Positions 11,874 through 35,317 of a DNA stretch of 41,711 nucleotides are shown one piece after another; within the stretch, counting starts at the first letter, position 1; each line of letters opens with the position of its first letter. The notes beneath the pieces are model-generated. The model was not told where the DNA came from. It made no database searches and saw only the letters and a list, made by a program, of their open reading frames with translations. The position numbers were made by a program, and so were the translations under genes. Location: NCBI GenBank assembly GCA_001773135.1, contig MEVX01000012.1:1-41711 (forward strand), written 5' to 3'. The stretch comes from a candidate division WWE3 bacterium RIFOXYB1_FULL_43_24 (GTDB lineage Bacteria; Patescibacteriota; WWE3; UBA101185; UBA10185).

Positions 11874-12079
11874 AATTTTCTATGGTTGGGGTGAATTCGC
11901 TTCGCGAAGCACTAACTTGAGAAGTGAGTGGAAGGACTCGGTCACCGGTTCGCGTCTGCTGACGCGCCCGTCGACCCCCTCTCGCTCGCCTTCGCTCGCT
12001 GCGAATCATTCTCGTCCTGCCACGAATAAAAAATTCCCGCCAGCTCGTCGCTTTGCTCCGAACTAACGGGAATTTTCTA
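11874..12079 (-). repeat. tRNA-Pro-linked structured unit ending in a duplicate of the tRNA 3' end
   Basis: AATTTTCTATGGTtGGGGTGA (11874-11894) repeats 12071-12091 with 1 mismatch; AGGACTCG also repeated; internal hairpins shared with the units at 26907 and 28305. Confidence 0.85.
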
Positions 12080-13536: not shown

Positions 13537-14346
13537 GTGCATAAAGCAAAAAATAACATTTTAGCTGTTTGGCAGCCTGTCGGAATATCGACAAATCGCC
13601 TATCCCAGATAGTAGGTGAGCACTACGGCACACTTTCAAGCCACACAGGTACTTTGGATCCTATGGCGGAGGGAGTGGTAATAATTTTATTGGGGGACAC
13701 CCGTCTTAAAAAGTACGAATACGCGCACTGGCACAAAACCTACGAGTTTGAAATTATTTTCGGCATGTCCACGGATTCTTATGACGCGATGGGTTTTATT
13801 ACCGGAAAAAATAATCTCGTACCTTCTAAAAAGGAAATAGAAAAAATTCTACCCAACTTTAACGGACCCTATTCCCAAAATGTTCCAATGTACTCCGCGG
13901 TAAAAGTAAAAGGGAAAAAACTTTTCGAAAGGGCGCACGCCGGTGAGATTCTAGAAAACACCCCGATTAAAAAAGGAGAAATTTTAAGCATACGTTTAAA
14001 AAGATACAGTGAGGTTTCCCTTAGTAATTGCGTTGAAAATATCTTAAGAAGATTAAACTCAGTCAAAGGAAACTTCAGGCAGGAGCCGATTATTTCGCAA
14101 TGGAAAAAATTTGTGGACTCCGACTGCAAAGTTATAAAAGCAAAGTTCGAAGTAGAGATGTCGAAAGGATTGTACGTGCGTTCTTTATCTCAGGATATTA
14201 GCAGCAAGCTCGGTTGCCTGGGGTTTACACACTCAATTGTCAGAACAAGAAACGGTAATTATGGAAAAAAGGGGGCGGTAAACGTAGAGAAGTTATTTGG
14301 CTCCCGGCGCAATTTCGACAACCTTATTGCGGGAGTTAAATCCTGA
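13537..14346 (+). CDS. truB: tRNA pseudouridine(55) synthase TruB family
   Basis: HTGTLDPMAEGV (catalytic Asp), PMYSAVKVKGKKL, SKGLYVRSL. Confidence 0.9.
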   Translation: MHKAKNNILAVWQPVGISTNRLSQIVGEHYGTLSSHTGTLDPMAEGVVIILLGDTRLKKYEYAHWHKTYEFEIIFGMSTDSYDAMGFITGKNNLVPSKKEIEKILPNFNGPYSQNVPMYSAVKVKGKKLFERAHAGEILENTPIKKGEILSIRLKRYSEVSLSNCVENILRRLNSVKGNFRQEPIISQWKKFVDSDCKVIKAKFEVEMSKGLYVRSLSQDISSKLGCLGFTHSIVRTRNGNYGKKGAVNVEKLFGSRRNFDNLIAGVKS

Positions 14347-26815: not shown

Positions 26816-26906
26816 TTTGTTCATACCTTATTTTTTAAAAGATGAAGAACTTGGTGCGGTGCCGAAAAACTTTTGATATTTTACTTCAATGGATCGTACG
26901 GTCTGA

Positions 26907-27086
26907 TTGGCTGGGGGACAGGGATTCGGTCACGCATAAAATTCTGCTGAATTTTTGCTCGACCCCGCCTCGCTCGCCTTCGCTCGCTCCGGCATTCGAA
27001 TCCTCCAAATCACAACAATAAAAAATGTCCGCAAATCCTGCGGACTTCCGGCCATTTTTCATGGCTGAGCACACGGATCTAGAACC
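26907..27086 (-). repeat. tRNA-Gln 3'-end copy plus structured unit (distal copy)
   Basis: 22 bp identical to 32013-32034; 62 bp (26906-26967) identical to 28304-28365; degenerate second copy TGGCTG...GGATCTAGAACC at 27062. Confidence 0.9.
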
Positions 27087-27131
27087 TTAGTCTTTCTCCG
27101 AGATGATTATATATAGTTTTAATAATTAAGG

Positions 27132-28058
27132 TTAACGATTTTCCTGTAAATAGGCTTCAATTAGTTTTATATCATTCAAGTCTTTTTCTCTACCTAAAGC
27201 TTTTTTAAATAATTTTAGCGTAGACAGCTGCACATAGGGATGTCCATCAAGGATCTCAGCTTCTTTTACCTGTGTCTCAACCGGGCAAATGTTTGGATTT
27301 GTGAAATGCGATCCCTCACCTAGAATTGTTACGTTTCCTATTTGAATTGTTTCAAATCTTTCGCTTATGACAGGGTATTTGACTTTATACCTATCCCAAA
27401 CACTAGGTAAAACAATAATATCCAGATCATGTGGTTCTCTTAGGTTTCTTACGGCTAGTGGGCCGGAACCTGTTATTGCATATTCTCCAACTAATAAACC
27501 AATTTGGTCTAACTCTTTGAGGAGATTAGTTAGTATCCCCTGTTTCTCCTCAATTAAAAACTCTGAAAACGTATTCGGATATGGATATTCATGGTCATTT
27601 CTATGCATAGATATAACACTTATTTCGTTATCAATTTTATGAAGAAAGTCGCACACATTTTTGTATGACCCATGATTATCGTTTTCGTTCTGAATAAATA
27701 ACATTTTATTTTTAGGAATACTTTTGAGTATCGAGTAGTGTTCGCAGTCTTCAGAGGATAGATCTTCCAGAGGTATACCGTTAAGAATTATTTTATTTGT
27801 TAATGAAGATTCTTTTTCTAACAATTTAATTGTTACATAGGTTCCAATGGATTTTGCGAGGATATTTATTTTCTGGTTTTTATATTTTTCGCTAACTCCA
27901 TCCGCGGTTTTTTCGATCCAATTTTTGGTTGCAACACCTGTTTTCCAGTGATCCCAATATATTACTTCGGAATCAACATCCGGAGAAAGTTCCTTGCTTA
28001 TATGTTCCGCCCAATCTTTATTTTTTATTGAAAATCCGGGAAGAATTAGTGTTTTCAT
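27132..28058 (-). CDS. alpha/beta-hydrolase-like domain fused to a nucleotidyltransferase-like domain
   Basis: ILPGFS, AKSIG, QNEND, DHEY, then YAITGSG...HDLDIIV...REKDLND. Confidence 0.75.
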   Translation of the reverse strand: MKTLILPGFSIKNKDWAEHISKELSPDVDSEVIYWDHWKTGVATKNWIEKTADGVSEKYKNQKINILAKSIGTYVTIKLLEKESSLTNKIILNGIPLEDLSSEDCEHYSILKSIPKNKMLFIQNENDNHGSYKNVCDFLHKIDNEISVISMHRNDHEYPYPNTFSEFLIEEKQGILTNLLKELDQIGLLVGEYAITGSGPLAVRNLREPHDLDIIVLPSVWDRYKVKYPVISERFETIQIGNVTILGEGSHFTNPNICPVETQVKEAEILDGHPYVQLSTLKLFKKALGREKDLNDIKLIEAYLQENR

Positions 28059-28196
28059 AATTCAATTATACAGTGAGTTTTATATAAAAAGACCCTTCGG
28101 ATCTAGAATTTCATAAAAGGATATTTACTAGCCCTAAAAGGCTATTCGAGGCTTCATGGTCACTTGCATGCCCACTCTGGCCAGCAGTATTGTATG

Positions 28197-28286
28197 TTAT
28201 CTGAAGAATATTGCCCAAATTAGGGCAATAAATAAAACTATTAATAATCCTATAGCTCTTCCAACAAAAAACTTTTTAGGTGTCAT
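28197..28286 (-). CDS. 29-aa single-TM peptide MTPKKFFVGRAIGLLIVLFIALIWAIFFR (not in ORF track)
   Basis: TATAAT (28298..28293) 6 nt before ATG; clean hydrophobic helix. Confidence 0.6.
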   Translation of the reverse strand: MTPKKFFVGRAIGLLIVLFIALIWAIFFR

Positions 28287-28304
28287 GGAGTTATTATACA
28301 TTTA

Positions 28305-28483
28305 TTGGCTGGGGGACAGGGATTCGGTCACGCATAAAATTCTGCTGAATTTTTGCTCGACCCCGGCTCGGCACCGTCGTGCCTGCGCCATTCGAATCTT
28401 TCCGCCTTCAACAAGTAATTTGTCAACCAACCCTGCGGGCTGCTTGCCAAATCACTGGCTGGCGGTTTTGCACGCTATTTGAA
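28305..28483 (-). repeat. tRNA-Gln 3'-end copy plus structured unit (proximal copy)
   Basis: 62-bp identity with 26906-26967; alternative second hairpin; second TGGCTG at 28456. Confidence 0.9.
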
Positions 28484-28506
28484 TTTTGTAGTTATAATAT
28501 TGTTAT

Positions 28507-28968
28507 ATGAGTCTTACTTCAAAAGAATTGATTAATGGATTTAAGAAATCCTATTATCGTACTAAAGATGCGAAAAACTCGGAAGAAATATTAGAAGTGT
28601 ATTACTCCCTGTTCGAGACACTAAACTGGGTTGTGGCGATCGATTACAAACTATGCGCAGAAAAAAATGACAATAAATGGTTTTCAAAACTAGGTTCCGA
28701 TGGTGATTATATAAATGCGCTGAGATTTGCAAGGAACAGGACTTACCATCAGTGGTTTACTATATTTAAATTAGATCGAAATGATACTTTTCCTGCAATA
28801 TTTCCTATGCTTCTTTCTACATGGAAATGGTGCCCTTTATCAGATATACCTTCTGAAAGAGGTCAAAAAGAGGACCCAAACGATGAAAAACTCTACGTAA
28901 AACTTTTGGCAAACAGACCCGTAAAAGATGCTTTAGTGATTATTGATAAAATATTTTCTATTACCTGA
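28507..28968 (+). CDS. putative HEPN-like protein
   Basis: Helical, E in the N-terminal helix (LFETLNW), R-x4-H motif RNRTYH. Confidence 0.55.
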   Translation: MSLTSKELINGFKKSYYRTKDAKNSEEILEVYYSLFETLNWVVAIDYKLCAEKNDNKWFSKLGSDGDYINALRFARNRTYHQWFTIFKLDRNDTFPAIFPMLLSTWKWCPLSDIPSERGQKEDPNDEKLYVKLLANRPVKDALVIIDKIFSIT

Positions 28969-29041
28969 ATTATTTTAGTGGCCGTTTTGTAAGCTATTTA
29001 AACTGTTATTTTACAACGTACTGTGGTATAGAGTAATAAAG

Positions 29042-29380
29042 ATGGAGATTCATAGAAAAACAAAAGAAAGATATGGCTCTTTTTTTGAAGATAGGATTTG
29101 GCTAGCATGGGCAGAAGGCTGGTTTAAGATTCTCGAATGGTTAACCCTGATAGCTTTATTCGAGTATGTTTCAGTTACGACCGGTAGTAAAATACTAAGT
29201 TTTATAGTAACCATCTCATACACACTACTGTTTTATTATCTATATAACAAACTTTTTAATACTTGTTGGTTTAGATATAGACTGTCGAAGCTTTGGTCTA
29301 CGATCAGCTCTCTTATAATAACAGTTTCTGCATTTGCATTAGTAACAAAAATAGTAGAACAAATTACAGGAAAATATTAG
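29042..29380 (+). CDS. small 3-TM membrane protein
   Basis: Three hydrophobic segments. Confidence 0.7.
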   Translation: MEIHRKTKERYGSFFEDRIWLAWAEGWFKILEWLTLIALFEYVSVTTGSKILSFIVTISYTLLFYYLYNKLFNTCWFRYRLSKLWSTISSLIITVSAFALVTKIVEQITGKY

Positions 29381-29524
29381 TATTAGACGATAACAATAGA
29401 AACCAATTATCATTTCGCTGGGTATACGGCATAAATACTCATATGTATTTAGTAATACCAGAGCTGAAAGTTAGCGGATGTTGTTGGCACAATCTTGATT
29501 TTGAAAGACTTGACCGCATTTTTA

Positions 29525-30115
29525 TTAATAACCATTGAAAACATTTCCACAATAGGGACATTTTTCTCCAACTTTTACATTTTCGTTAATACAGTAAGGG
29601 CAAAACATAGGATTATCCTGATCTTCTATATATTCAGGTGAGGGTGAAGGAGAAGGAGATACGGAGACAGCACTTGCAAGACCCGAAGCAGTACTCACTG
29701 CAGTGCCTGCTGTCATTTGATCAATCACATTGTTAGTCACTTTTTTTAGCATCGATTTTAGATCGATAAGACCTTGTGCTTGATTAAGGGATAAAGCTTC
29801 AACCTTGGAATTAAGTTCTTTTAATAGGTCAAAATCAACATCCTTTTGAGCATACATAGCTGCTACTTTTTTATACCACCAATCTCTCATTTGCGTTATT
29901 TCTCTACGTTTTTCAGGGTTAGCACCAAACCAAGTATGGCAATTAGGACATAGCGGAGCTGCGTTATCAAATGTATCCTCTCCTTGTTCTTTTTGCGGTA
30001 TTATATGGTGCGCTTCAATTCCAATATTCTGACACCTACAACACCTGAATGCCGATTTTTCCTTAACGTTATTAATAATTGCTTCACTAAAAGCCATATA
30101 ATCGGGTTGTAGCAT
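29525..30115 (-). CDS. HNH endonuclease with C-terminal zinc ribbon
   Basis: CCRC...EAHHIIP...DNAAPLCPNCH; (SP)4 linker; CPYC...CPYC. Confidence 0.88.
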   Translation of the reverse strand: MLQPDYMAFSEAIINNVKEKSAFRCCRCQNIGIEAHHIIPQKEQGEDTFDNAAPLCPNCHTWFGANPEKRREITQMRDWWYKKVAAMYAQKDVDFDLLKELNSKVEALSLNQAQGLIDLKSMLKKVTNNVIDQMTAGTAVSTASGLASAVSVSPSPSPSPEYIEDQDNPMFCPYCINENVKVGEKCPYCGNVFNGY

Positions 30116-30783
30116 TAAGCTCTAGACCAACCCCCTTCAATAAGTTCTCTTGTTAATTTGGCTTTTTGAGGGTGTATATATAGATTTCTTATGATATCTT
30201 CAATAACATCAATACAGAGAGACAGATCATCTTTATGATGCTTTTTGATTTCATGAGTAGCTAAATTGCCAATATCTTTAACAAGCATGAGCAATACTGC
30301 ACCATCTCTTGTAATAATATTTTTATGAACCATCTCATCTATTTTTGTGTTTATCCCCTGAACCTTTATGTCTTGTTGAATTGATATTGCCTCAATAGTG
30401 GTTCGTACTCCTATTGCTGTAAGAATTAGCATCCCTGCGTTAAAGGATTTTATTGTTTCTTCATAAATTGTACGTACATCTTTAGGTATGCTGAAATAAC
30501 CGTTTACTAATTCCCTATCACTTCTAAAGGGCGTTGGATGTACACTTTCTGTGATGTCAGGATCGCCAGTTTGCGGGTCTACATCTTCACTGCTAACATA
30601 TCTGATCAATAAACAAATGTTATCACAACCTAAACATCGCAAAGTAAGAAAAGTTGTACTGTCCCATATATCACCATCATCGCTAGTTCCAAATTTTTCA
30701 TACTCATTGATTACATTGTGCCAAGTTTCTTGCTGGCAAGCTTTACACATTATTTTACTTTTATATTTTTTTGACACATTCAT
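30115..30783 (-). CDS. DUF4145 (HEPN-superfamily) protein with N-terminal Zn ribbon
   Basis: CKAC...CLGC, IPKDVRTIYEE, RTTIE, KDIGNLATH. Confidence 0.82.
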   Translation of the reverse strand: MNVSKKYKSKIMCKACQQETWHNVINEYEKFGTSDDGDIWDSTTFLTLRCLGCDNICLLIRYVSSEDVDPQTGDPDITESVHPTPFRSDRELVNGYFSIPKDVRTIYEETIKSFNAGMLILTAIGVRTTIEAISIQQDIKVQGINTKIDEMVHKNIITRDGAVLLMLVKDIGNLATHEIKKHHKDDLSLCIDVIEDIIRNLYIHPQKAKLTRELIEGGWSRA

Positions 30784-30806
30784 AGATTTGGTTCAGCCAA
30801 TATTAT

Positions 30807-31718
30807 TTAAGTTTTATCCTCTGAAATTAATTGACTATATGCGGCCTTAAATACTTGCCAGCAAATATGGGCCGTATTTTCATCGGGGTTAAATGCTTGT
30901 GCAACCTGTTCATGTGGATGAATAAAATTTCTAAAATCTCTTAGAGCATGACTAAATTTCTTCACGTCTAGCTTAAGACGCTTCGTTGAATATGAAACAT
31001 CAATCAAATCTGATAATGTCCAATCATATATCTTTTTAATATATCCGTTTTTATCTTTGGGCGCAGAGTTGTTAGTCATGAATTCTTTTTGGTTTTTTAA
31101 AGCTACTCCAAGCAATATACCTTCCAGCGTACTCCCTAACTGAAAGATAAGACTTAAATTAAGGTCACTTTCTAAGCAACGTCGCGCTTCATTAACTCTA
31201 TCTGTAAGTACCTGTGTAATAACAGAATCTAGATTTAATTTATTAATATCAATCTCATCGCTATAATCCTTTTTTAAAAACTGATTAATTTCATTATCTG
31301 AAGATGCGTTATTTGAAAGTTTATCTCCATCTATATTAATTGATTGAATTCGTTTAAGAGTAGGGGTTGCTCCAATATACTCAATTTTCATTGCTTCCAT
31401 GCCAAGTAACTCATTCATTGCTTTGTACGCCATGGCTAGAAGTTTTTGATCGCCTTTGTATTCTTTCGGGTCAACTAACCTTAGTAGCACCTTTTCGAAT
31501 TCAGTAGGTATTAGTCTGTTTAAAGTTTCTAATACCCACCATTTACGGGTAGATCCGTCATGTGCAACGTTAATTCCTATATTTTGAAAAAATCTAGTTA
31601 GATATGATGAAGATCTGTAAACTGGGTAACGTTCCTTTATATCTCCGCAAATGAAATCAGCTATTGTTTCTACAACGGCAGGGTCAGGTAATTGTCCAAA
31701 GTGTAAACTATTGTCCAC
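30807..31718 (-). CDS. AbiJ-N-terminal-like domain plus C-terminal HEPN-like domain
   Basis: ICGD...YRSSSYLTRFF...HDGSTRKWW N-domain; GSTLEGIL and LRDFRNFIHP C-domain. Confidence 0.7.
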   Translation of the reverse strand: MDNSLHFGQLPDPAVVETIADFICGDIKERYPVYRSSSYLTRFFQNIGINVAHDGSTRKWWVLETLNRLIPTEFEKVLLRLVDPKEYKGDQKLLAMAYKAMNELLGMEAMKIEYIGATPTLKRIQSINIDGDKLSNNASSDNEINQFLKKDYSDEIDINKLNLDSVITQVLTDRVNEARRCLESDLNLSLIFQLGSTLEGILLGVALKNQKEFMTNNSAPKDKNGYIKKIYDWTLSDLIDVSYSTKRLKLDVKKFSHALRDFRNFIHPHEQVAQAFNPDENTAHICWQVFKAAYSQLISEDKT

Positions 31719-31815
31719 ATAAGAATTATAACACTCGATGGTTGCAACCGCGGCCTTTAATATTTAGACTTCGCTTATACTCAACAATATCTACAAGTTG
31801 ACTATTTCTACATAA

Positions 31816-32013
31816 AATGCTACCCACCTATACGCTAATAATGGTTTGGGATATAACTTTTCTAAGGCTTATTCTTTACTCTACAAGGCGGTTGAGATTA
31901 CTAATAGTTCGGAAATCAAAAATATTAAGGAATTTCGGGATTATATTTCCGAACCTGACGAATTAGTTGCTAGTAAAATGAAAACTGACTCTTTTCGAGC
32001 CATTCGTTCCTCT
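31816..32013 (+). pseudogene. probable C-terminal remnant of a recombinase gene reading into the tRNA att site
   Basis: Open frame without a good start that runs into the tRNA antisense (…SSWLGDRDSNP); no catalytic domain visible. Confidence 0.4.
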
Positions 32014-32087
32014 TGGCTGGGGGACAGGGATTCGAACCCCAATTTTTGCATCCAGAGTGCAAAGTCCTACCATTAGACGATCCCCCA
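32014..32087 (-). tRNA. tRNA-Gln(CTG)
   Basis: TGGGGGA acceptor stem, TTGCA-CTCTGGA-TGCAA anticodon arm, GGTTCGAATCC, encoded CCA. Confidence 0.97.
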
Positions 32088-35168: not shown

Positions 35169-35317
35169 TGAACAGGTTCTTCACCGAGTATACGAGGTGG
35201 AGGTTCTGTTTATGTGATTCTCGCAAGGGAGCGGACTAACTTTAGTTATGTTCGACCATTGCGTAATGAAATGAAGCAATCGCTTTGATGGAGTCAAAAT
35301 TCCCCGTGGGGTCACCA
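35169..35317 (+). repeat. tRNA-Glu-linked structured unit ending in a duplicate of the tRNA 3' end
   Basis: ATTCCCCGTGGGGTCACCA at 35150-35168 and 35299-35317 (149-bp period); G.A-mismatch hairpins between. Confidence 0.88.

Follow-up and report, generated by a model that had tools for sequence, protein, structure and literature searches.

Candidate insertion hot spot for serine-recombinase-moved elements at a tRNA-Gln gene of a WWE3 bacterium

The tRNA-Gln locus and its counterparts in congeners

We analysed the tRNA-Gln(CTG) gene of candidate division WWE3 bacterium RIFOXYB1_FULL_43_24 (Patescibacteriota) and the array of inserts that lies behind it, using as the window the whole of contig MEVX01000012.1 (C12; 41,711 nucleotides; assembly GCA_001773135.1). 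The host genome, G000, is a metagenome-assembled genome of 777,638 bp in 19 contigs and is approximately 95% complete. The tRNA gene was predicted at 32014-32087 on the minus strand by ARAGORN and Rfam; its locus is also conserved among the congeners. In tRNA sense, the gene (32087-32014) is followed by insert A, module 1, inserts B1 and B2 and module 2; the GC content is 0.32-0.37 over 27000-31800 compared with 0.40-0.45 in the flanks. Rfam applied to the window at gathering thresholds returned three tRNAs and nothing else, and an E-value scan of 26850-28500 gave three matches, all at chance level.

The original prediction took this region for an integron-like cassette array anchored on the tRNA gene, marked by three copies of the tRNA 3' end and by a perfect 62-bp direct repeat, and both repeats were recovered. 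The 22-mer TTGGCTGGGGGACAGGGATTCG is the reverse complement of tRNA-Gln from C56 in the T-loop to CCA with one further base. Three exact copies lie at 26907, 28305 and 32013 (0 occurrences in 100 shuffled sequences), and there are no further copies at up to two mismatches. The direct repeat spans 67 nt (26906-26972 and 28304-28370) with one mismatch, at repeat position 63, and includes a perfect core of 62 nt with a period of 1398 bp; beyond it weaker homology extends to ~27004 and ~28402. The perfect identity, taken as a sign of recent activity or homogenisation, proved to be poor evidence of recent activity, as two other congeneric species have retained this Gln-type hairpin sequence. All 39 tRNA genes and the tmRNA gene of the genome encode their own CCA end.

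Insert A (28463-32013, minus strand; 3551 bp, low GC, five open reading frames (ORFs), no recombinase) is closed by CCAGCCA (28456-28462, minus), a 7-nt partial copy of the tRNA terminus that forms a direct repeat with 32014-32020. Module 1 (28305-28455, minus) comprises a spacer (28403-28455), a structured unit (28327-28402; delimited by alignment and fold, 90.4 bits with the model R1 described below) and a 22-nt copy of the tRNA end (28305-28326). Insert B1 (28178-28304, minus), as read from the sequence, is a 127-nt remnant ending in ...CTGCTGGCCA / ...GCTGGCCA, and the likeness of this end to the P arms described below suggests that it is probably a decayed cassette end. Insert B2 (27062-28177, minus), delimited by the arm alignments A2 and A3 (see below), is a 1116-bp cassette without recombinase that begins with a P' arm, GAGTGGGCATGCAAGTGACCATGAAGCC (28150-28177, minus), carries an ORF for a 308-aa protein (27132-28058, minus; N-terminal half hydrolase-like in Pfam, second half without an assignment in the family searches) and ends with a P arm, GGTTCTAGATCCGTGTGCTCAGCCA (27062-27086, minus). 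Module 2 (26907-27061, minus; 103.8 bits with R1) consists of a spacer' (27005-27061) with a terminator-like hairpin at 27027-27045 (terminator scan), a unit (26929-27004) and a tRNA-end copy (26907-26928). Each insert starts directly behind a terminal ...CCA, which belongs to the tRNA itself or to the tRNA-end copy of a module, and ends in its own look-alike of the tRNA end, which is 6-7 nt (A and B2) or 25 nt in length.

The ORFs of insert A encode proteins of 303 aa (30807-31718, minus; adjoining the tRNA gene, HEPN/DUF4145/AbiJ-like and not recombinase-like in Atlas, which we treat as a lead only), 222 aa (30115-30783, minus; DUF4145), 196 aa (29525-30115, minus; HNH), 112 aa (29042-29380, plus; membrane protein) and 153 aa (28507-28968, plus; no family name). 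Here and below, Pfam, NCBIfam and Atlas names are annotations and the functions are predicted. No recombinase domain was found in the six array ORFs by Pfam, PADLOC or NCBIfam, and for the cargo the latter two gave weak HNH and PD-T7-4 matches and nothing more. The predicted lack of an integrase in the array was thereby confirmed, as was the mixed orientation of the cargo (four ORFs on the minus and two on the plus strand). The claim that the genes mostly carry their own -10 element before the start fared worse, with 17 promoter-like sites in the array compared with 21.8 ± 5.1 in shuffled sequences, i.e. no excess. The cargo was also described as defence- or detoxification-like; this is reasonable for the HNH, DUF4145 and HEPN-like proteins and a guess for the hydrolase-like 308-aa protein (best Pfam match Ser_hydrolase, E 0.009, below the cut-off). 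Residues 1-170 and 176-308 of the latter match separate proteins (four distant metagenome relatives, one half each), and it looks like a two-domain fusion; a P arm lies nearby in one of these four relatives. A GSG...DLD motif in its second half resembles what we take to be a nucleotidyltransferase signature, and an Atlas search with the protein gave no usable match. DNA or protein homologues of the cargo were not found in the rest of the genome or in the loci fetched till then, beyond spacer and arm pieces.

The relatives used for comparison are kin, and counts across them are not independent. Five congeners have the flanking NYN-domain gene at 88-99% identity, and the content behind tRNA-Gln(ctg) differs among them. 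Module 1 lies directly behind the tRNA gene in G003, where a cassette with an AadA-like nucleotidyltransferase follows, and in G004, where the contig then ends; insert A is absent in both. In G002 the spacer and unit of module 1 are likewise directly behind the tRNA, followed by 3.9 kb (methyltransferase, transglutaminase-like, radical SAM/SPASM and NUDIX genes) and module 2, with P arm, spacer' and unit in the same order as in the window. G005 has neither a unit nor such genes behind this tRNA. At other tRNA genes (Pro in G020, Arg in G005 and Leu in G019), the cargo starts after ...CCA and ends in 6-8 nt of the terminus of that tRNA, and is then followed by spacer, unit and tail.

Metagenome data, i.e. 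contigs of four groundwater or soil runs (Logan contigs, which break at repeats), provided an empty site for insert A: in three of the four runs 28455 is joined to 32014 with seven ambiguous letters shared, at depths of 69, 28 and 8 compared with ~10 for insert A. Other joints were set aside, namely 27071>28306 (depth 6, side 23), 26958>32014 and 28398>32014, which have short sides and may stem from other organisms, and one that goes back 1376, which has extra letters and reflects unit copies elsewhere.

The variable content predicted for this locus, with boundaries on the repeats, was found in the congeners, where the cargo differs and its edges fall on full or partial tRNA-end copies; neither identical gene content nor edges lying off the repeats turned up among the relatives. 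Serial site-specific acquisition at one tRNA-anchored site is supported by the congeners, by the empty site and by the array of G034 (see below).

The tRNA-Gln(ctg) sequence of G001 is entirely unlike that of the congeners. The island there (L062, 3700-12770) has no unit; a 584-aa serine recombinase abuts the tRNA, followed by HTH, VirD4/TraG-like coupling protein, relaxase-like (Replic_Relax), ArdC-like and DUF3644 genes; such a set is of the conjugation type and here belongs to a genome of the candidate phyla radiation (CPR).

Recombinases, attachment arms and cassette arrays

A complete island with a candidate enzyme lies behind tRNA-Gln(ttg) of G002. It is 12 kb long, starts after the tail copy of a module, carries restriction-modification genes and a 430-aa large serine recombinase (LSR; Pfam domains Resolvase, Recombinase and Zn_ribbon_recom), ends in ...GGTTCTAGACCCGTATGCTCAGCCA and is followed by a second module. 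LSR matches are present in 43 of the 61 relatives. We inspected 20 LSR loci of the better-scoring among the matches listed (chosen from the tops of the lists, as were the arrays below), and 16 of the 20 have a convergent tRNA gene at most ~1 kb from the 3' end of the LSR gene, often overlapping it; two of the other four stretches stop at a contig end. There is no R1 unit between tRNA and LSR, or anywhere in these 20 loci, and the module is therefore not part of the proximal end of LSR islands. The three domains were recognised by Pfam in G002 and G008, the G010 enzyme was assigned by LSR match and ORF, and the 584-aa enzyme of G001 gave a Resolvase domain match alone.

The genome carrying the window has a single LSR gene (C18:12499-13719, beside tRNA-Pro(tgg)), the product of which shares 57% identity with the G002 enzyme. 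Compared with the proteins of the relatives it starts at residue 35, after an in-frame TGA, and the first 34 residues with the YARKSS motif are missing. In Bxb1 and phiC31 the catalytic serine is in the N-terminal part (PMC12884075, in excerpt). Since the resident LSR lacks the catalytic N-terminus, we take the array to be probably frozen, barring an incoming island that brings the enzyme with it. A tblastn search of the array with the G002 LSR gave no remnant (best E 1.7). The suggestion that the recombinase acts in trans or has been lost is supported by LSRs in complete islands and an N-truncated resident copy. The stretch around this gene (C18:11821-16300, L086) comprises tRNA-Pro(tgg), a P'-like arm, the N-truncated LSR gene and a gene for a 785-aa AAA_13 ATPase.

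Two PF00589 genes are present in the genome, on C6 and C15 and none in the window; both are Xer-like, score 128.8 and 43.5 bits against an integron-integrase cut-off of 265, and encode the only intact recombinases of the genome. Neither the window array nor the annotated islands and arrays of the relatives yielded a tyrosine integrase. The array does not qualify as an integron, having no IntI and a serine recombinase as the linked enzyme.

The two ends of B2 have counterparts in LSR islands. Its start, CCA|GAGTGGGCATGCAAGTGACCATGAAGCC, aligns (A2) with the stretch from tRNA-Gln(ctg) to the LSR in G008, with the tRNA-Pro/truncated-LSR junction of this genome and with sites in G002 and G003. Its end, GGTTCTAGATCCGTGTGCTCAGCCA, aligns (A3) with the distal end of the G002 LSR island, with sites in G003 and G002, and with a site in this genome 7.2 kb behind tRNA-Gln(ttg). 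In G002, G008 and G010, tRNA-Gln, LSR and distal P arm are found in the correct order and on the correct strand. On sequence grounds, B2 is a recombinase-less element with both putative attachment arms of the LSR island family. P is joined directly to P' in G003 and in 5 of 28 species loci, and for G003 this joint would be the arrangement expected of a circular form or of two tandem elements.

The last 25 nt of tRNA-Gln(CTG), GGTTCGAATCCCTGTCCCCCAGCCA, are presumed to be the left half of the chromosomal attachment site. The 25-nt P arm is of the same length and shares 15 of 25 positions with it, including the GGTTC and CAGCCA ends. The cassette-end site is the P arm, a conserved stretch of 25-75 nt ending in CAGCCA; insert A ends in the bare 7-nt repeat instead. 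With the pattern GGTWCTRGAYCNNNNTGCTCAGCCA at up to two mismatches we found 40 sites in 20 of 41 family genomes (reversed-pattern control, 0), and the P' arm is present in 5 of the 41 at up to three mismatches. A conserved TTTTATACTGTCTCATTTGTCTCATTTACATCCTGGAGAA stretch precedes many P arms (12 of 28 species loci). An exact scan for the P arm in one genome each of 185,579 species gave 28 loci, all in Patescibacteria-type records. No conserved fold was seen in the P arm (-3.3 kcal/mol; covariation in 2 of 10 pairs).

The most extended array is in G034, at an orthologous locus: tRNA-Glu(ctc), VanW-like and NYN-like genes and tRNA-Gln(ctg) are followed by seven P arms in 9 kb, marking off cassettes that are 0.57-2.5 kb long. 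Each cassette holds 1-2 ORFs, their orientation is mixed, and they encode radical SAM, MFS fragment, methyltransferase and unknown products. The array lacks a recombinase and the genome an R1 unit. G009 has two cassettes (phosphoribosyltransferase-like and UDG) and no unit, G030 has three P arms near a contig end, and G008 has an LSR and type I restriction island followed by a HhH-GPD/NUDIX cassette. No cassette proteins are shared among the arrays of G002, G003, G008, G009, G030 and G034, which represent five genera, and the likenesses between the six are family-level NUDIX and methyltransferase alone.

The 7.2-kb island behind tRNA-Gln(ttg) of this genome (C8:154734-161969, L087) carries a Vsr endonuclease, a C5 DNA methylase and five unknown ORFs, and no recombinase. 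A P arm closes it, and a degenerate second P arm lies 30 nt earlier.

The structured tRNA-trailer module

The ~75 nt beside each displaced 22-mer recur behind many other tRNA genes of the genome, and each genomic copy of this unit is followed by a copy of the 3' end of the local tRNA, from C56 to CCA. Copies are located behind tRNA-Gly(ccc) (two in tandem), Arg(tcg), Leu(gag), the tmRNA gene, Arg(gcg), Arg(cct), Ala(ggc) and tRNA-Leu at the start of C18, and a decayed one behind Pro(ggg) in the window. Eleven copies align as a three-way junction in which 13 of the 24 pairs show compensatory change. The covariance model built from these copies, R1, finds 12 copies in this genome and, counting it, has matches in 28 of the 61 genomes compared up to the level of class; the tails of modules 1 and 2 match tRNA-Gln at 22 of 22 nt. 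Across 64 distinct copies, in an alignment that was fitted to the model and favours structure, 96.5% of cells pair compared with 73.0% when shuffled and 28-42% when partners are slid, and 20 of the 24 pairs have changed on both sides. No Rfam family matched the unit.

A conserved G-U pair fixes the folding strand of the unit as the tRNA-sense strand. Its 5' arm complements the local tRNA tail at positions 56-62 and covaries with it; in G003 the tail copy has changed from G to A at position 57 and the arm from C to T to match, and the tRNA itself keeps G. By covariation, the conserved G-U pair and the compensatory change in G003, the fold is under selection. Among 31 unit matches in the stretches fetched from relatives (one weak match overlapping a tRNA-Lys gene is omitted), the 21-nt tail is identical to that of the upstream tRNA or tmRNA in 20, differs or has decayed in 7, and 4 have no matching tRNA in the stretch. 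Most units examined have a ~50-nt spacer and no gene, and those of this genome are nearly always free of cargo. Almost the same sequence as the spacer' of module 2 serves as spacer behind tRNA-Leu at the start of C18, which argues that the spacer travels with the unit.

The original prediction had likened the structured units to attC sites of cassettes. This is not supported: the unit lies behind at least 12 tRNA or tmRNA genes of this genome and nearly always lacks cargo, arrays of relatives reach seven cassettes without any unit, and it is the P arm that closes cassettes. The two modules of the window are members of a genome-wide structured family and resident, not cassette sites.

The unit behind tRNA-Pro(ggg) (window 11920-12018, minus; 90.6 bits) has a tail that has decayed after ~8 nt and a fold that is kept, so that the acceptor part of the tail copy can be lost without loss of the fold. 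In a four-tRNA cluster of G053 (L053, 10584-11013), a unit is placed between tRNA-Leu(taa) (0-nt gap) and tRNA-Pro(tgg) (3-nt gap); given these gaps, it must, as predicted from the layout, belong to the tRNA precursor transcript. Searches for Y1/HUH transposase, reverse transcriptase and TnpB-type domains yielded none in the genome, which is 95% complete, so that IS200/IS605-like, retroelement and TnpB explanations of the module lack an enzyme here.

Interpretation and relation to known systems

We consider it reasonably likely that the 3' end of tRNA-Gln(CTG) is an insertion hot spot that has been used repeatedly by elements moved by LSRs. Such elements would insert serially at this end, and the modules, each with its copy of the local tRNA tail, would offer extra landing sites, B1 and B2 being placed behind one of these. 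The recombinase would come with a larger island and serve recombinase-less neighbours. This reading builds on what the sequences show, namely the anatomy of the array, variable content whose edges are exact, arms in common with LSR islands and LSR genes linked to tRNA ends; from the sequence comparisons we infer LSR catalysis of the insertions, the location of the crossover and the use of module tails as target sites. Inserts are found behind module tail copies in B1/B2, the 12-kb island and two other junctions of G002, the AadA-like cassette of G003 and a 2.7-kb insert of G019. The two units of the window would be separated from the tRNA because cassettes inserted at tRNA-end copies, and this would link the module to recombinase-driven arrays.

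Several points weigh against this interpretation. The data are contigs, which are blind to rare excision products, and no recombination was seen; the empty-site contigs carry two base differences from the window in module 1, at 28399 and 28402, and hence represent the empty site of a co-occurring strain, not an excision product. How the segments are ordered across the 67-nt repeat depends on the assembler. For insert A we recognised neither a P nor a P' arm and found no homologue among the fetched loci, and its tie to an LSR consists of its position and the 7-nt repeat alone. An LSR needs just 2 bp of identity, and the invariant 6-nt CAGCCA would equally suit the overlap region of a tyrosine recombinase. 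Most genomes with P arms lack a close homologue of the 430-aa LSR. P' arms are rare, and accordingly most cassettes have the conserved distal arm only; with no cassette ORF shared between arrays, movement of one cassette from array to array is not demonstrated.

A more far-reaching version, which we regard as rather unlikely, is that Patescibacteria run a two-tier, serine-recombinase counterpart of the integron, in which modules multiply tRNA-tail half-sites and LSRs stack single-gene cassettes. In the first tier the structured module would copy the tail of its tRNA while its 5' arm keeps pairing with the copy, and near-perfect attachment half-sites would be multiplied behind tRNA genes. In the second, single-gene cassettes closed by a 25-75-nt mimic of the tRNA-Gln tail would be stacked by LSRs, which larger islands bring in and which disappear thereafter. 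If true, genomes of less than 1 Mb would possess a heritable recombinase-free store of accessory genes.

The strong fold of the unit permits an integron-like explanation, in which the unit folds as single-stranded DNA and a host Xer-like tyrosine recombinase joins it to the tRNA T-loop; its closing helix would rebuild a double-stranded T-loop/T-stem, as in attC or the CTX-phage attP, and cargo plus unit would be the cassette. The extensive pairing and compensatory changes, the covarying complementarity of the 5' arm to tRNA positions 56-62 with the G-to-A/C-to-T pair of G003, and the folding strand fixed by the G-U pair all fit, the two Xer-like enzymes are the only intact recombinases here, and all cargo lies between a tRNA-end copy and spacer plus unit. 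We nevertheless judge it improbable, as the empty site indicates that insert A entered between the tRNA and a resident module, the cargo ends bear their own partial tRNA-end copy ahead of the spacer, the arrays of G034 and G009 have cassettes and no unit, most units have a ~50-nt spacer without a gene, and the gain by the unit of a new tRNA tail with a matching arm is left unexplained. The P arm may also be a Xer/dif-like 11-6-11 site.

Alternatively, the array could consist of tandem islands inserted by tyrosine integrases at the T-loop sublocation of the tRNA gene, with the integrases since deleted and the repeats left as attL/attR scars. A 22-nt repeat from T-loop to 3' end is the classic tRNA-island pattern (PMC4383910, in excerpt), tycheposons have been described as tandem arrays in which partial tRNAs stand between the elements (10.1101/2020.12.28.424599, in excerpt), and the identical 6-7-nt core fits a tyrosine-recombinase overlap. 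This we hold to be very unlikely, however: the islands and arrays examined in relatives contain no tyrosine integrase, the recombinases abutting tRNA genes are of the serine type (16 of 20 loci), the 22-nt copies belong to a structured module that is also found without islands, and the cassette-end sequence is conserved across genera rather than a decaying scar. The chances appear just as slim that no dedicated mobility is involved, i.e. that tRNA-trailer RNAs were duplicated in tandem and genes came between them through illegitimate or homologous recombination at the repeats. The units are indeed conserved, structured and in tRNA sense in 28 of 61 genomes, the unit of G053 is wedged between two tRNA genes, and cargo-free tandem units exist, e.g. 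behind tRNA-Gly(ccc), but the insertion edges are exact and have short direct repeats, the arms are common to recombinase-bearing islands, and the P-arm arrays are specific to tRNA-Gln.

The closest analogue of LSR-moved insertion at tRNA-Gln would be the composite island of the staphylococcal cassette chromosome (SCC), in which one element supplies the LSR for recombinase-less neighbours, and not the integron. SCC elements are moved by Ccr large serine recombinases, and pseudo-SCC elements without recombinase occur in tandem arrays (10.1101/336396 and PMC13739063, in excerpt; partly general knowledge). The two systems have in common a single conserved gene with insertion at its 3' end, tandem arrays that include recombinase-less elements, the bounding of every element by a short repeat that copies the end of the target gene, and a serine recombinase able to act in trans, CcrB being the best NCBIfam match of the island LSR. 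This match scores 115.8 bits against a cut-off of 900 (CcrA, 69.7 against 700), so the enzyme is not a Ccr. Moreover, the target is a tRNA gene here and rlmH in SCC, there is one recombinase gene instead of the ccrAB pair, the cassettes are much smaller (0.6-2.5 kb) and more numerous, and the host is a Patescibacterium with a genome of less than 1 Mb, where arrays are interleaved with a structured tRNA-trailer module.

Likeness to the integron lies in the single anchor, the small cassettes of 1-2 genes that stand in a row and all end in a conserved site, the difference in content between relatives and the absence of an own enzyme from most cassettes. Apart from the missing IntI and the serine-type linked enzyme, it differs in that the cassette-end site has no conserved fold, unlike attC, while the folded element, the three-way junction of the unit, is absent in G034; in addition the orientation is mixed and there is no common promoter. 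The tycheposons of Prochlorococcus resemble the present arrays in their streamlined host genomes, islands beside tRNA/tmRNA genes, tandem elements split by partial tRNAs, degenerate remnants, and defence and adaptation genes as cargo (10.1101/2020.12.28.424599, in excerpt). According to the same source, 910 of 937 tycheposon elements have tyrosine recombinases, and replication genes are carried; in contrast, the linked enzymes here are LSRs, and many cassettes hold a single gene and have a conserved 25-75-nt end.

Ultra-small CPR/Patescibacteria genomes are usually held to be poor in mobile elements, and little is understood of the ways in which they acquire accessory genes. The present data point to a concrete candidate route, with tRNA-Gln anchors, a defined and conserved cassette end and a serine recombinase as candidate enzyme, and they give the tRNA-trailer module a first functional context in that its tail copies may serve as insertion sites. 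In the literature searched, with most subscription journals outside the search, we found no description of serine-recombinase cassette arrays at tRNA genes of Patescibacteria, nor of the module. Serine recombinases are commonly used in genome engineering (PMC12884075, in excerpt), and if the 430-aa LSR and the P-P'/tRNA-end sites work, they would constitute a natural compact integrase/att pair.

At 13664-13678 of the window (minus), 15 nt of the 3' end of tRNA-Ser(cga) recur exactly, with the tRNA gene itself on another contig, C15; they may be an orphaned island end or the trace of a rearrangement. Finally, a second kind of trailer is located behind tRNA-Glu(ctc) (window 35169-35317, plus). 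It consists of ~130 nt of different sequence and ends in an exact copy of at least the last 19 nt of that tRNA, ATTCCCCGTGGGGTCACCA; similar trailers lie behind tRNA-Glu(ttc) on C8 and tRNA-Ser(cga) on C15.

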